Source of the DNA: a virus
Lineage: Duplodnaviria > Heunggongvirae > Uroviricota > Caudoviricetes
IMG/VR virus record: IMGVR_UViG_648276652_000008
Span: 1 to 7,211 of that record
Strand: one strand, 5' to 3'
Length of the DNA stretch: 7,211 nucleotides
In this document: in pieces, positions 1 through 7,211 of the stretch
Numbering within the stretch: the first letter of the stretch is position 1
Layout of the letters: every line of letters begins with the position of its first letter
Notes under the pieces: generated by a model
What the model saw: the letters and a program-made list of their open reading frames with translations, nothing else
What the model was told of the DNA's origin: nothing
Databases searched by the model: none
Made by a program: the position numbers and the translations under genes

Positions 1-159
1 CCGAAAGCGCACGAACATACTACAAACTGTTGATTTTGGTACACCCAGGCGACGCCCGGCCACAACCCGGGGTAAATGTTCTTCAAAGTGAAGACGTAAA
101 GCTTCAGTGATCCAGGTCCGGTGTTTCATACGATAGTGTCCATTAAAAATGATGGACAT
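1..159 (-). CDS. Partial ORF of unknown function (N-terminal 53 aa, runs off window start); translation MSIIFNGHYRMKHRTWITEALRLHFEEHLPRVVAGRRLGVPKSTVCSMFVRFR has a helix-turn-helix-like segment; possibly a transposase or regulator N-terminus
   Basis: Hand translation of the minus strand. First in-frame ATG after the D stop is at 159, with a second ATG at 129. No stop before the window edge. No clear Shine-Dalgarno. Below the length cutoff of the ORF track. Family not recognised. Confidence 0.3.
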   Translation of the reverse strand, partial: MSIIFNGHYRMKHRTWITEALRLHFEEHLPRVVAGRRLGVPKSTVCSMFVRFR

Positions 160-195
160 TATTTTTGTAGAGCCGGAGGAAACAGACCAGACGGT

Positions 196-486
196 TTAAA
201 TGAGCCGGTTACCAGCCTCCGGCCAGAGCACATCCTCATAACGGAACGTGCCGGACTTGTAGAACGTCAGTGTGGTGCTGGTCTGGTCAGCAGCAACTGC
301 AAGAATGCCAACGGCAGCACCGTCGGTGGTGCCATCCCACGCAACCAGCTTACGGGTGGAGGTGTCCAGCATCAGCGGGGTCATTGCAGGCGCTTTCGCA
401 CTCAACCCGCCGGGCGCGGTTGCGGTATGAGCCGGGTCACTGTTGCCCAGCGGCTGGTAATGGGTAAAGGTTTCTTTGCTCGTCAT
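196..486 (-). CDS. D: Head decoration protein D, lambda-like but 3'-truncated/fused (96 aa vs 110 aa in lambda); probably a pseudogene remnant
   Basis: Translation [40 protein letters not shown]...[11 protein letters not shown] matches lambda gpD almost residue for residue, then ends GNRLI* instead of lambda's ANDETKKRTAFAGTAISIV. ATG at 486 is preceded by AAGGGA. The ORF-track start at 492 (MFM...) is 2 codons upstream of the lambda-equivalent start. Confidence 0.85.
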
Positions 487-495
487 AAACATCCC

Positions 496-1101
496 TTACA
501 CTGGTGTGTTCAGCAAATCGTTAACGGCATCAGATGCCGGGTTACCTGCAGCCAGCGGTGCCGGTGCCCCCTGCATCAGACGATCCAGCGCAGTGTCACT
601 GCGCGCCTGTGCACTCTGTGGTGCTGCGGCCAGAATACGGCGGGCCGTTTCCACGGTCATACCGGGGGTTTCGGCCAGCACGCATGCCTGTTCTTCGCGT
701 CCGTGAGCCTCCTCACAGTTGAGGATCCCCATAATGCGACTGTTTTCTGCCGCAACCGCTGCGGTGATCTGCGCGTTCACGTCCGGCTGCGCAGCGCTGG
801 CGTTCTCGCCCTCCGTCGCTTGCACCACGCCAGTAACGTCAGCCTGCGAAGCAGTGGCTGAAACAGTTGTTGATTGAGTCTCTTTGGTCATTCGCCCTCC
901 TGAGAGACGGGATTTACGTGCATCCAGTGCATCACGCATGACGGTGATCGCATCGGTACTGTTCACAAGTTCATCAGCCAGTCCGGCATCAATGGCCTCC
1001 TGACCGCTGTACACTGCAGCCTCGGTATCCAGCACAGCCTGCACGGACAGGCCGGTATATGCCGACACCTTCTGTGCAAACATCCGGCGGGTTGCATCCA
1101 T
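496..1101 (-). CDS. nu3: Scaffolding protein Nu3, nested in-frame in the 3' part of C (201 aa)
   Basis: In-frame ATG at 1101 (MDATRRMFAQKVSAYTG...) lies exactly 714 nt downstream of the C start, as in lambda where Nu3 shares the C reading frame. No strong Shine-Dalgarno seen, so the call rests on lambda precedent. Confidence 0.7.
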   Translation of the reverse strand: MDATRRMFAQKVSAYTGLSVQAVLDTEAAVYSGQEAIDAGLADELVNSTDAITVMRDALDARKSRLSGGRMTKETQSTTVSATASQADVTGVVQATEGENASAAQPDVNAQITAAVAAENSRIMGILNCEEAHGREEQACVLAETPGMTVETARRILAAAPQSAQARSDTALDRLMQGAPAPLAAGNPASDAVNDLLNTPV

Positions 1102-1795
1102 CCGGGACTGCAGTGTTTCCCGGACATCATCCGGTAGATGGCTGTAGGGGTTGCCATCCACCTTATGGCTGCCGCTGTAAATCAGCGTGATTTCCACGCC
1201 CTGTTTCTCCAGCGCAGCACCGTAATTACTGTGAGCCATCATGACGCCGATGGAGCCTGTCCGGGCGGTCTGCGTGACCAGACGCCGGGAGGCGGCGCTG
1301 GCAAGCAGCTGACCTGCACTGCAGTTCATGTCGTTGGCCAGCGCCCATACCGGTTTTATGTCTCGCACACGGGCGATGATGTCAGCACAGTCAAATGCTC
1401 CCGCCACCATCCCGCCCGGTGTGTCCATATCCAGCAGAATGCCGTCCACCATCGGATCGCTGGCAGCCTGTTGCAGACGGGCGATAATGCCGTTGTAACC
1501 GGTCATCCCCGAATACGGCTGCAGCGCCCGCGTCCGGCTGACCAGCGTGCCGGACACCGGCAGCACGGCGATGCCGTTCATGACCTGATAACTGCGGGCC
1601 TGTCGTGGTCCGTCATCATCAACGGATAACGCCAGCGCCGCGGGTGCCTCTCCGGCAGTCAGGCTGTCGCCGGACACCGCATCCGTCAGGCGGCTGATCC
1701 CAAGCTGGCCTGCAAGCGCACAAAAGAAAACCCGCGCATAGGCGGGTTCAAGCATCAGCGGCTCATTAAAGGCCATACTGGCAATATGCGGGAGA

Positions 1796-1815
<20 letters not shown>
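496..1815 (-). CDS. C: Minor capsid protein C (prohead protease, S49/ClpP-like peptidase family), 439 aa
   Basis: Translation from VTAELRNLPHIASMAFNEPLMLEPAYARVFF... is near-identical to lambda gpC as recalled. GTG start at 1815 preceded by GGAGGAG. The 20-nt overlap with the B 3' end matches lambda geometry. The 484-aa ORF-track version (start 1950) is an upstream read-through extension inside B. Confidence 0.9.
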
Positions 1816-5493
<3,678 letters not shown>

Positions 5494-5522
<29 letters not shown>

Positions 5523-6000
5523 CCGCAAATTCCTTCATTTTTTCAGCGGACTCAACGCATTTATTAGCCCCCTTCGCAACCAGCTCTTTTAGATAAGCCA
5601 ATTGTCTGCCTGTCAATTCAGGGAATTTTCTTTGCATCGAAAGCGGAATACTGTCCAAAACAGATGCCAGTTCTCCGGATAACCGAGACAGGGCAAAAAT
5701 AGAGAAAGCTGTATCAATCACCTTATGCTCTGCAACCTGGTTTTTTAACCGCTGAGCAATAGCCTGTTCTTCCGTCAGGTTAACCCTGGCCTGAAGTAGC
5801 CTTTCCTCAAGATCATTTTCACCACCTGAAGATTTCTGGTTTTGTTGACGTCGCTCGCGATCTATCTCCAGTACAGTTTTAACGTCATAGAAAACCTCTC
5901 TCCCCCGGCGCTCAACAGGAGGAACACCCCATTTATCAAATGCCTGTACTGAGATACCGATGGAGGAGGCCATGTCGCTTTTATTCAATAAAAAGGCCAC
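5494..6000 (-). CDS. Terminase small subunit, Nu1-like but divergent from lambda Nu1 (phage 21 / NohA-NohD type suspected); about 168 aa
   Basis: C-terminal half ...KVIDTAFSIFALSRLSGELASVLDSIPLSMQRKFPELTGRQ... aligns with lambda Nu1 ...ETAFCTFVLSRIAGEIASILDGLPLSVQRRFPELENRH.... N-terminal LNKSDMASSIGISVQAFDKWGVPPV aligns with the Nu1 winged-HTH VNKKQLADIFGASIRTIQNWQEQGMPV. The 3' end overlaps the A start by 29 nt (26 nt in lambda). Start is uncertain: in-frame GTG at 6000 follows GGAGG and is preferred over the ORF-track TTG at 6024 or the ATG at 5973. Confidence 0.8.
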
Positions 6001-6033
6001 AGCCCCTCCATAAACCACCGGCAAAAAAGCAAT

Positions 6034-6042
6034 ACAACAACC
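6034..6042. promoter_or_regulatory. cosB candidate small-terminase binding element (ACAACAACC), R1-position equivalent
   Basis: 9-bp motif ACAACAACC, about 35 bp upstream of the Nu1-like start; one of three copies spaced like lambda R1/R2/R3. Confidence 0.45.
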
Positions 6043-6099
6043 ACGTTTTTTGTAAAACCCTCTGATTTTACATGCTTTTTCGTATAAGAAAGATCATCA

Positions 6100-6108
6100 G
6101 GTTGTTGT
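6100..6108. promoter_or_regulatory. cosB candidate small-terminase binding element, inverted copy (GGTTGTTGT), R2-position equivalent
   Basis: Exact reverse complement of the 9-bp motif at 6034..6042 and 6159..6167, located between them. Confidence 0.45.
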
Positions 6109-6158
6109 GTTTATTTTTCTTTCTTATTACTTATCAAGTAGATATATCAAACGATAAA

Positions 6159-6167
6159 ACAACAACC
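6159..6167. promoter_or_regulatory. cosB candidate small-terminase binding element (ACAACAACC), R3-position equivalent
   Basis: Second direct copy of ACAACAACC, 39-47 bp from the cohesive-end sequence. An AT-rich stretch with ATCAA cores (about 6110..6155) lies between this copy and the inverted copy, where lambda has the IHF site I1. Confidence 0.45.
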
Positions 6168-6205
6168 ATCACCTCAAAAAAACTCGTAAATAGCGAAAAC
6201 CCGCG

Positions 6206-6217
6206 AGGTCGCCGCCC
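6206..6217 (-). other. cos: cosN cohesive-end sequence (12-nt GGGCGGCGACCT on the minus strand), the lambda-type cos site
   Basis: Plus strand AGGTCGCCGCCC is the reverse complement of the lambda 12-nt cohesive end. Flanking bases (minus strand GGGCGGCGACCTCGCGGGTTTTCGCTATTTA) match the lambda left terminus for about 31 nt before diverging. Confidence 0.85.
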
Positions 6218-6249
6218 CGTAGCCTGCCGGATCACCGGAAAGGACCCGC
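6218..6249 (-). other. Conserved lambda right-terminus segment adjoining cosN (expected to contain cosQ)
   Basis: Minus strand GCGGGTCCTTTCCGGTGATCCGGCAGGCTACG matches the last ~32 nt of the lambda right end as recalled (GCGGGTCCTTTCCGGTGATCCGACAGGTTACG) with 2 mismatches; similarity is lost beyond about 6250. Confidence 0.5.
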
Positions 6250-6391
6250 AAAACCGAGAATAAGTATCAATACTATTTGTGATTTGAATGATGCACATCA
6301 TTGAAACGCCATTCATCCATATACCAGCAGCATTCGGTGTTGCACTTCGTAACTCTGTGACTACGGTTATAAAAGCATTGGCAACTTTTGC

Positions 6392-6438
6392 CACCGGCAA
6401 GTCTTCAATGGATTTCCCCTGCCGGTTTTTTATTTTCG
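6392..6438 (+). terminator. Weak hairpin plus T-tract (possible intrinsic terminator on plus strand)
   Basis: ACCGGCA / TGCCGGT 7-bp stem with a ~20-nt loop, followed by TTTTTTATTTT. Stem is short and loop long, so this is weak. Confidence 0.2.
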
Positions 6439-6524
6439 TCGATGCATAACATTGCATTTACATCAATAGCAGCTATTGTCATTAGTATGTTGCATCGATG
6501 CATGGGTGGTATTGGCGGTCTTCG

Positions 6525-6560
6525 CCGACCGGTTCTGTGTAGCTCCCTATGACCGGTTTT
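6525..6560 (+). terminator. Weak hairpin plus T-tract (possible intrinsic terminator on plus strand)
   Basis: Self-complementary ACCGGT copies around 6528..6533 and 6550..6555 can pair across an ~18-nt loop, followed by TTTTTTATTT. Confidence 0.2.
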
Positions 6561-6562
6561 TT

Positions 6563-6599
6563 ATTTCTAAGATTACAGAAGCCCTTCACTGTATGAAGG
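6563..6599. repeat. Perfect 16-bp inverted repeat with 5-bp spacer (TTACAGAAGCCCTTCA ctgta TGAAGGGCTTCTGTAA)
   Basis: Read directly: arms 6563..6578 and 6584..6599 are exact reverse complements. No clean U-tract follows on either strand (plus: AACTCTTCTTACTT; minus: AATCTTAGAAATAAAAAACC). Confidence 0.6.
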
Positions 6600-6777
6600 G
6601 CTTCTGTAACTCTTCTTACTTAGTAATTTTCGCACCTTCCGGTATTTCCATGAGTTGAGAAATCCTCATACTATCCGACAATAATCATCAATATACGATA
6701 AAGACATCTGACCAGATTGCAGTATTAAAAGCACTCATGCAGACTACGCCCCTCATATCATATACAAGGGGATACTG

Positions 6778-7188
6778 ATGGCTCAGGTTGCCATTTTTAA
6801 AGAAATATTTGATCAAGTGCGGAAAGATTTAAACTGTGACCGGTTTTACTCTGAACTAAAACGCCACAATGTCTCACATTACATTTACTATTTAGCCACA
6901 GGTAATATTCACATTGTATTTGAGAGCGATAACACGGTGTTAATAAAAGGTTTCCATGATGTTATTCATGTTAGCTTTTGCAGAGACACGCGACTTATAG
7001 AAACTTACCTTCATAAGTTGAAATCAAGAGAAATCACATTTCATGAATACAGGGTAAATCTGGCTAAAGCTGGAGTTTTCCGATGGGTTACAAATATCCA
7101 CGAACACAAAAGATATTACTATACCTTTGACAACTCATTATTGTTTACCGAAAGCATCCAGAACACGACTCAAATTTTTCCACGCTAA
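6778..7188 (+). CDS. ybcV: DUF1398 family protein (YbcV/YdfO-like prophage accessory protein), 136 aa
   Basis: ATG at 6778 preceded by AAGGGGA at the right spacing; clean ORF with stop at 7186..7188. Translation [47 protein letters not shown]...[24 protein letters not shown] matches my recollection of E. coli DLP12 YbcV / Qin YdfO. Symbol is from memory, not a search. Confidence 0.75.
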
Positions 7189-7211
7189 ACCATAACGTCC
7201 GGTTTGATCCG

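Follow-up and report, generated by a model that had tools for sequence, protein, structure and literature searches.

A perfect inverted repeat near cos in a lambdoid prophage segment and its relation to a family of gene-end hairpins in temperate enterobacterial phages

Hairpins lying between or just past genes have been described in several phage and bacterial systems. At the RNase III sites of phage T7 (R1.1 type), cleavage leaves the hairpin on the 3' end of the upstream message; at sib/tI of lambda, a hairpin past the gene governs the decay of the upstream message in read-through transcripts; and the REP/BIME elements are known to stabilise upstream mRNA against 3' exonucleases. In T4-type phages, short conserved stem-loop motifs called PeSLs flank small accessory genes in plastic regions and are linkers for modular shuffling; each bears a strong sigma-70 promoter together with a stem-loop that terminates transcription effectively (Arbiol et al., 2010; PMC2839356). 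The present analysis concerns a perfect inverted repeat in positions 1 to 7,211 of the IMG/VR virus record IMGVR_UViG_648276652_000008, a lambdoid prophage segment in reverse orientation (this whole stretch of 7,211 bp is called the window). Judged by sequence comparison, the repeat is one atypically perfect copy of a conserved hairpin of temperate enterobacterial phages, which belongs to a widespread and apparently uncatalogued family.

The repeat has 16-bp arms without mismatch around a 5-nt spacer (TTACAGAAGCCCTTCA-CTGTA-TGAAGGGCTTCTGTAA), which is exactly the form given in the initial annotation; its placement there at 6563-6599 was 10 bases too far left, the true position being 6573-6609. 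The core hairpin and its extension are as follows.

6573..6609, minus strand: core hairpin, with perfect 16-bp arms at 6573-6588 and 6594-6609 and the spacer at 6589-6593

6569..6614, minus strand: extended helix, with four extra pairs (AAGA/UCUU) beyond a 1-nt bulge and about 21 bp in total; minus-strand fold and model match at 6568-6613

The span of the extended helix corresponds to the positions of the lower stem and flanks in the family model described below, and in minus-strand RNA an extra U.G pair of the core leaves a loop of 3 nt. No other perfect inverted repeat of at least 9 bp with a 3-10-nt spacer occurs in the 7211-bp window. Among 200 first-order Markov simulations of the window, the longest perfect repeat was 12 bp, reached in one simulation, and was otherwise at most 10 bp; chance, already judged an improbable source of the palindrome, fails to account for the 16-bp repeat. 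Folding of both strands, a check proposed with the annotation, yielded stable hairpins with z-scores near -8, the predicted energy of the hairpin RNA being -25.5 kcal/mol (z -7.7) for the plus strand and -26.6 kcal/mol (z -8.9) for the minus strand. With its flanks included, the minus strand is predicted to form a 21-bp helix with one bulge at 6569-6614 (-30.3 kcal/mol).

The viral contigs were scanned with a degenerate pattern of both arms (scan 1) and with the flanks only (GCATTACAG ... GATAATG), in which case a non-canonical stem base was required (scan 2). At least 119 viral contigs with the element were found in scan 1 and at least 120 with the pattern in scan 2; both scans together give at least 239 viral contigs with the same element. 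The commonest forms among the matches listed for scan 1 were ATTATCGCAGCCCCTCAnTGAAGGGCTGCTGTAATG and its GAAG.../...CTTC variant, which lie in many unrelated flanks; among those listed for scan 2, 57 of 72 distinct matches were hairpins of the same architecture with other upper stems, and the rest were non-folding chance matches. The element was also found by BLAST, without annotation, in phi80 (5 nt after rha), phiP27 (after L33), cdtI (after orf60), Fels-1, and phi458, as well as in temperate phages of Klebsiella, Citrobacter, Enterobacter, and Edwardsiella. A scan of species-representative genomes gave mostly chance matches in unrelated phyla, while real matches came from Citrobacter, Klebsiella, Pantoea, and Apirhabdus. 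The suggested search for the same palindrome elsewhere has thus led to a conserved family with diverse flanking genes. Lambda-like sequence or the enterobacterial hairpin was also seen at high identity in MW057783.1 (Campylobacter phage CJLB-4), PP818812.1 (Actinobacillus phage vB_Apl-pPE4), OM284015.1 (Elizabethkingia phage EKP1), and contig L146 (Chryseobacterium sp. 18061); enterobacterial-type sequence in these non-enterobacterial records may reflect contamination or a wrong host assignment.

The consensus of the family in minus-strand sense is 5'-(G)GCAUUACAG-[C/A]AGCCCUUC-loop-GAGGGGCU[G/U]-CGAUAAUG-3', which can be summarised as GCAUUACAG, a 10-bp stem, a 3-7-nt loop of free sequence, the other side of the stem, and (C/U)GAUAAUG. 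The element is 36-46 nt long with a stem of 15-17 bp, and its parts were compared over 70 distinct sequences, which also served for the pair statistics. The lower stem comprises five AU-rich pairs (CAUUA/UAAUG), three of which are invariant in 70/70 sequences. It is followed by a 2x2 internal loop, CA/GA, in 62/70 sequences; in the remaining 8/70, the window among them, this loop is closed to C-G and A-U pairs. The upper stem has 10-11 bp and contains a U.G pair in 60/70.

Covariance models of the family hit the minus strand of the window at 6568-6613, as one copy only, with 51.7 bits (R1; E 1e-10) and 45.0 bits (R2; E 2e-10), scores to be read with the fact that the training rows included a sequence (L068) identical to the window hairpin. 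The same models scored 38.4 bits (R1) and 32.8 bits (R2) on the plus strand. In place of the family flanks (G)CAUUACAG/GAUAAUG, the window has GAGUUACAG ... CUGUAAUC, in which UUACAG and UAAU are retained, a GA>UG change closes the internal loop, a state shared by 8/70 variants in all, and the outermost C-G pair is replaced.

The covariance models of Rfam 15, run at permissive thresholds on the window and two typical members, gave only chance-level hits (E >= 0.24) far below gathering scores, the best being to Atu_C9 and snoRNA models (E 0.24-0.73). The element is not described in the literature consulted on boundary sequences and stem-loops of lambdoid phages, on RNase III processing of late transcripts, or on phi80 rha; searches of papers for 15-16-nt motif strings gave no match, and 11-mers matched only unrelated eukaryotic primer sequences. 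None of the examined phage records carries an annotation for it. Several other identities were considered and discarded. A promoter inside the element is excluded by the spacing of TTACAG and GATAAT, about 22 nt apart, and one on the other strand by TGcTGTAAT, in which, on our own reading, the critical second position of the -10 hexamer is a G. The AUG of GAUAAUG was discarded as a start codon, as it is out of frame with the downstream genes and at a variable distance from them. The prophage Pas small RNAs described in a preprint are unrelated; they end in U-tailed terminators, and the preprint is silent on terminase and cos.

Covariation in the 70 sequences supports the fold. Paired cells make up 86.9% against 33-50% with slid partners, double-change cells number 108 against 42.7 in shuffles, and the covariation score of 0.285 against 0.118 was matched by 0/500 shuffles, although these cell counts overstate the number of independent events because the sequences are related by descent and were collected by pattern. 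Pairs 11-35, 12-34, 14-32, and 16-30 each occur as 2-6 pair types. Entire upper stems are swapped under fixed flanks (AGCCCUUC/GAGGGGCU, CAGGCAUUC/GAGUGCCUG, GUGGCAUUC/GAGUGCCAC, AUGGCUUUC/GAGAGCCAU, GUGGUCUUU/GAGGGCCAU, and others), a replacement that would be hard to account for without selection for pairing. With the internal loop set aside, G.U cells number 118 and fall at 12 stem positions, compared with 17 A.C cells at 5, and the late-sense (minus) strand folds better in 35/36 variants, by a mean of 3.7 kcal/mol; both point to the minus strand, in the sense of the late operon, rather than the plus strand as the one that folds.

The strand bears on whether the hairpin is a transcription terminator, either a weak intrinsic one on the plus strand, as the initial annotation had also considered, or a minus-strand terminator of the lysogen that is overridden by Q-modified polymerase in lytic growth. 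The stem is strong and G+C-rich, it sits just past gene ends, and a simple scan lists the plus strand as terminator-like with the tail CTCTTCTTAC. However, this flag arises solely from CTCTTCTT, with 5 T in 8 bases, and the window has no clean U-tract on either strand, as was rightly remarked at the outset. The late-sense tail is without a U-run (GAUAAUG... in the family, UCUUAGAAAUAAAAAA in the window), while the plus-strand tail CUCUUCUUACUU is interrupted and not conserved, the relatives having TGCC, TGTC, or TATC. The pyrimidine-rich tail is thus specific to one lineage, and the plus strand also folds worse; no plus-strand transcription from the cos side into the hairpin is known. Moreover, a lipoprotein gene neighbouring the elements at locus L086 ends in a canonical terminator with a GC stem and U8, which argues that these phages use canonical terminators where termination is wanted. 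A terminator on either strand is, therefore, considered highly improbable.

The position of the element relative to genes is recurrent. A co-oriented stop codon lies 0-6 nt ahead of GCAUUACAG in about 155 of 195 distinct contexts (~80%), and the genes that it ends are varied, including Rha, DUF826, Rz-like spanins, and many small proteins of unknown function. About 20 nt downstream there are small terminase subunits (Terminase_2), HNH or ParB-like genes, or, in the window, the cos module, and large terminases of the GpA, TerL/HK97, Terminase_6, and Terminase_3 types follow 0.6-2.6 kb further downstream. As the downstream terminase genes belong to at least five Pfam types, the element marks the end of the lysis/accessory segment before the packaging genes, regardless of the packaging machinery. 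The window copy also lies between lysis/accessory and packaging genes in the late-operon sense.

Arrays of 2-4 co-oriented copies, 311-354 nt apart and bracketing small open reading frames (ORFs), are present at 29 of 211 loci, with four copies in the array of L086. At L086 (9900-11400, locus minus strand), L198 (6638-7322), and L265, 3-4 co-oriented copies were seen between the lysis genes and terminase, each after a small ORF; within each of these arrays, the upper stems differ and the flanks are alike. The flanks fall into 100 upstream and 117 downstream clusters, joined in 153 combinations with 7 four-gamete squares, and 21 upstream clusters pair with more than one downstream cluster. The flanks are, on this clustering, reticulate and recombine freely, and the hairpin lies at mosaic breakpoints.

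Such a distribution could arise if the hairpin were only a recombination linker without a role in RNA, persisting and spreading as a micro-homology patch with which the homologous recombination systems of phage and host swap cassettes in the plastic lysis-to-terminase interval, in the manner proposed by Botstein. Breakpoints occur on either side of the hairpin, the flank combinations are reticulate up to the 7 four-gamete squares, the arrays bracket small accessory genes, and the shuffling mediated by the PeSLs of T4-type phages is a precedent (PMC2839356). However, a homology patch needs no hairpin, no compensatory pairing, no tolerance of G.U on one strand, and no start just past a stop codon, and the replacement of upper stems lowers the usable homology while the structure persists. 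A linker and nothing more is, on balance, unlikely.

The arrays also raise the question of a folded single-stranded DNA site, at which a recombinase or nuclease would read the base, the unpaired central bases, and the stem for site-specific movement of cassettes, as in integron attC. The outline is attC-like (conserved base helix, unpaired central bases, and variable distal stem), the element abuts the 3' ends of ORFs in co-oriented gene-plus-hairpin arrays, and strand-specific tolerance of G.T is equally compatible with single-stranded DNA. Nevertheless, a GTTRRRY/RYYYAAC core is absent, the element measures 36-46 nt where attC has at least 57 nt, neither an integron integrase nor a dedicated recombinase was found beside the arrays in the annotated neighbourhoods of the examined phages, and breakpoints at one fixed bond were not demonstrated; a site of this kind is very unlikely.

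Beyond what was observed of its family, structure, folded strand, position relative to genes, and reticulate flanks, the hairpin is probably a cis-acting structure of the late mRNA for processing or stability that is also a recombination linker. The late transcript would run from the lysis genes through cos into the terminase and head genes, with the hairpin read on the minus strand within it. A few nucleotides past the stop codon of the preceding gene, the RNA is predicted to fold into the 5-bp lower stem, the 2x2 internal loop (closed in the window), the 10-11-bp upper stem with its U.G pair, and the short loop. The fold may act in cis as a double-strand cleavage site of the RNase III type or as a hairpin protecting a 3' or 5' end, that is, a barrier to decay. 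The polycistronic late message would then be split at cassette boundaries, and the stability of the lysis/accessory part uncoupled from that of the packaging segment. The approximately 40 bp of near-identical DNA at equivalent junctions of many phages would at the same time offer a short homology patch for the exchange of modules, and the hairpin would lie at mosaic breakpoints because this shared DNA acts as such a patch. RNA, rather than single-stranded DNA, would be the active form and the mRNA the target of its effect. Among the possibilities raised initially, a processing or stability hairpin in the late transcript is the one favoured by the covariation, the G.U tolerance confined to the late sense, and the 0-6-nt spacing from the stop codon. 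A specific partner may bind the hairpin, given its invariant lower stem and internal loop.

Several points weigh against this role. We infer function from anatomy alone, the pair counts carry the excess noted above, and G.T-tolerant folding with a fixed polarity equally fits a hairpin extruded from one DNA strand. Lambda and most lambdoid prophages are without the element, and it is, therefore, dispensable for their lifestyle. An RNase III site is expected to have a helix of about two turns (about 20 bp), often with an internal loop. The window provides such a helix (21 bp with one bulge), while typical members, with 5 bp, 2 unpaired positions, and 10-11 bp, are borderline; for a classical RNase III substrate, the usual helix (5 bp, 2 mismatches, and 10 bp) is on the short side. 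Conversely, the conserved stem ends and flanks would be superfluous for a simple exonuclease barrier, which again hints at a specific binding partner. The window copy itself, whose preceding gene is cut to 11 codons, may be a passenger of the cos-side module.

RNase E prefers RN|WUU, and the conserved G-C-A-U-U after the stop codon (GC|AUU in the family 5' flank) was seen to fit this preference. As an idea only, a putative RNase E cut at this point would give a downstream product whose 5' end is fully paired. A bolder proposal, which is decidedly unlikely, is that the family represents a dedicated cassette-boundary element, recognised on the folded RNA or single-stranded DNA by a specific nuclease or recombinase, that punctuates the late message and drives the gain, loss, and exchange of accessory genes ahead of the packaging genes. 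If true, it would be a phage counterpart of integron attC or the T4 PeSLs and a molecular form of the linkers that Botstein postulated.

The surroundings of the hairpin in the window comprise the head and terminase genes C, B, W, A, and Nu1 on the minus strand (up to 6024) and include these features.

5494..6024, minus strand: terminase small subunit gene (Nu1-like), named 'terminase small subunit' in the RefSeq annotation of the identical prophage

6206..6217, minus strand: 12-nt cohesive-end sequence of cosN, GGGCGGCGACCT on the minus strand

6241..6247, minus strand: core of cosQ, GGGTCCT on the minus strand, kept in all cos-bearing relatives

6288..6572, no strand assigned: apparently non-coding conserved module, about 285 bp long, that separates the hairpin from cosQ; module and hairpin occur together in about 250 E. 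coli genomes

6616..6651, minus strand: gene remnant, the last 11 codons (MEIPEGAKITK) and stop of a late-operon gene

6778..7188, plus strand: DUF1398 (ybcV-like) gene, opposite in strand and no part of the element, which it adjoins in this lineage alone

The sequence at 6206-6217 is taken to be cosN from its match to lambda cos, and that at 6241-6247 is presumably cosQ, given the right-end sequence of lambda; a 'cos site' feature is annotated in related records. In minus-strand order, the window thus has the lysis genes, bor/ybcV (on the opposite strand), the hairpin, cos, Nu1, and A; read in late-transcript sense, the packaging genes downstream of the hairpin begin with the Nu1-like gene. 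The remnant ends in a stop codon (TAA, 6616-6618) 6 nt ahead of the TTACAG of the hairpin, so that a co-oriented stop shortly upstream, as in the family, is found in the window too, though its ORF is an 11-codon remnant. In relatives, the full-length gene ends in ...GMELPEGAVVTE before the stop and encodes 98-130 amino acids, with annotated coding sequences in five of them (L002-L005 and L010); the bor/ybcV module has replaced most of this gene in the lineage of the window.

The placement between cos and ybcV given in the initial annotation holds, with a measured distance of 169 nt to the ybcV-like start instead of about 180 bp. The link to ybcV is incidental, as relatives bear unrelated minus-strand genes on that side. 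A promoter-like site at 6655-6682 on the plus strand (TTGAGA-16-GACAAT) is the only plus-strand candidate in the intergenic region and lies between the hairpin and the ybcV-like start; since this candidate is beyond the hairpin, the hairpin is probably outside the ybcV transcript.

Proximity to cos and ybcV, together with the perfect dyad symmetry of the window copy, would suit an operator-like DNA palindrome for a dimeric phage or host protein, such as a ybcV/bor regulator or a packaging accessory factor near cos, and a dimeric binding site had indeed been among the first suggestions. It is disfavoured by the asymmetry of the arms in most members (conserved U.G pair and CA/GA internal loop), by the fixed polarity relative to genes, and by a central stem whose sequence varies freely while it stays self-complementary. 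Members of the family also have unrelated genes as neighbours, as well as terminases of at least five types (headful-type enzymes among them), and the candidate promoter of ybcV is beyond the hairpin; the operator is hence scarcely probable.

The whole cos-to-ybcV arrangement is present in 15 of 5426 complete E. coli genomes, and most lambdoid prophages, including lambda, have ylcI/ybcW-type genes in the same interval. Taken alone, the segment 6270-6700 is found in about 250 genomes of E. coli. In this species, many matches to the cos-side module extend exactly as far as the outer hairpin edge and no further (query position 340, corresponding to window 6609). The module 6288-6572 adjoins small terminase genes of the Nu1 type as well as the DUF1441 type. 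In an alignment of eleven relatives with the window, the hairpin is kept in all eleven, while the relatives diverge at once to its left and right. It is kept in L005 and L011 despite a 130-bp loss between two CCGGTTTTTTATT repeats (window 6422 and 6553), and in L010, where nothing is left but the hairpin and the gene to its right. The closest diverged relative, L006, has two compensatory changes from C-G to U-A (T-A in DNA) in the stem compared with the window, and its helix is still perfect, which suggests continued constraint on the hairpin.

These comparisons bear on the possibility, given some weight though not favoured, that the window copy is a functionless relic linked to the cos-side module, while the family has a function elsewhere, its perfection here having arisen by hairpin-templated correction and not by selection; this would be compatible with any of the other readings for the family. 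The upstream gene cut to 11 codons, the rarity of the full arrangement, and the minority status of the perfect form with a closed internal loop (8/70 variants) are consistent with a relic. The two compensatory pair changes of L006 that keep a perfect helix argue against it, as does the fact that relatives of the cos-side module have all kept the hairpin, including the two with the 130-bp internal deletion.

The module itself may serve as a cos accessory or an RNA, among other options. The 14-bp sequence CCGGTTTTTTATTT occurs in it twice as an exact direct repeat, at 6422-6435 and 6553-6566, and the interval between the two copies is missing in L005 and L011. ATGATGCACATCAT (6288-6301) is a 14-bp palindrome, of which L002 has the version ATGACGCACGTCAT, a compensatory change. 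TTTCGTCGATGCAT (6434-6447) and TTGCATCGATGCAT (6490-6503) are related copies 56 nt apart, the second including the palindrome TGCATCGATGCA. These smaller repeats might be protein-binding sites. A plus-strand ORF at 6288-6449 (53 amino acids, MMHIIETPF...) has a homologue annotated as a RefSeq hypothetical protein in some genomes (WP_157777103.1). It was rejected as a conserved coding gene, as a 2-nt indel shifts its frame in L002, L004, L005, and L011, and it is probably an over-prediction. A minus-strand ORF at 6134-6457 spans cos and varies from 61 to 110 amino acids. In L007, L008, and L011, a second, unrelated hairpin, AAAAAGGCCGCAGAGCGGCCTTTAT, lies about 15 nt to the right of the family hairpin with A/T runs on both sides, a shape suggestive of a bidirectional terminator.

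Whether lambdoid and related temperate phages, whose operons must go on working, exchange modules through conserved linkers or by random illegitimate joints has been argued since the proposal of modular evolution. The hairpin is a concrete and testable candidate for a linker at the junction of lysis/accessory and packaging genes because it is short, structured, conserved in sequence, and recurrent at one junction, in phages of several enterobacterial genera whose terminases represent at least five unrelated types, and because it brackets small cargo genes. Should it also govern how the late mRNA is processed or decays, the family would represent a widespread type of cis-regulatory RNA in phages, prophages of pathogenic E. 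coli and Klebsiella among them, that has so far not been catalogued. Annotators can use it to recognise where genes end and cassettes meet in the stretch ahead of the terminase genes, which is poorly annotated. For the window alone, the gain is modest, as an object of a known type, an intercistronic hairpin, has been placed in a family and on the correct strand. The interest comes from the breadth of the family, its sequence-specific features, and its tie to mosaic junctions, which make an old question testable.

Compared with known systems, the family differs from the lambda-type nut sites (boxA/boxB), which have a 5-bp stem with a GNRA-like pentaloop, preceded by boxA, in early operons, whereas the present element has a 15-17-bp stem and a variable loop in the late region. 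Rho-independent terminators share the stable G+C-rich stem-loop right after a gene; unlike them, the element has no U-tract on either strand, in the window or in the family, and has conserved flanks, for which a terminator has no need. Integron attC is likewise a structured, strand-specific imperfect palindrome at the 3' ends of cassette ORFs in co-oriented arrays, and it too combines a conserved base with central bases left unpaired and a distal part that varies, but the present consensus is without the R-box core (GTTRRRY) and is half the minimal size.

The REP/BIME elements resemble the family as imperfect palindromes of about 35-40 nt just past stop codons, co-transcribed with the upstream gene. 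They differ in consensus and number, the present family being confined to late regions of phages and prophages with 1-4 copies per phage against hundreds per chromosome, and having no evident association with a RAYT transposase. E. coli genomes with any element have it in 1-3 places each, all of them prophage in the contexts examined. Lambda sib is also a hairpin downstream of a gene in a lambdoid phage, where DNA joining matters (att for sib and cos here). However, sib is single, tied to int, and overlaps a real terminator, while the present element is multi-copy, lies in the late region, lacks a U-tract, and is unrelated in sequence.

The T7 RNase III sites of the R1.1 type are likewise intercistronic hairpins in a long polycistronic phage mRNA. 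They occur in several related copies per genome, and an internal loop separates their upper stem, of about 10 bp, from a lower one. In contrast, the lower stem of the present family is only 5 bp in most copies, its sequence is unrelated, its cleavage is hypothetical, and it is found in temperate lambdoid-type phages that use the host polymerase. The window copy, without an internal loop, would be a fully double-stranded substrate cut in both strands. The PeSLs, finally, differ in their promoter and terminator, the present element having no promoter-like site (the hexamer-like TTACAG and GATAAT are about 22 nt apart) and no U-tract, but, like them, the present family brackets small ORFs, has reticulate flanks, and places its copies at the boundaries of insertions, deletions, and replacements.

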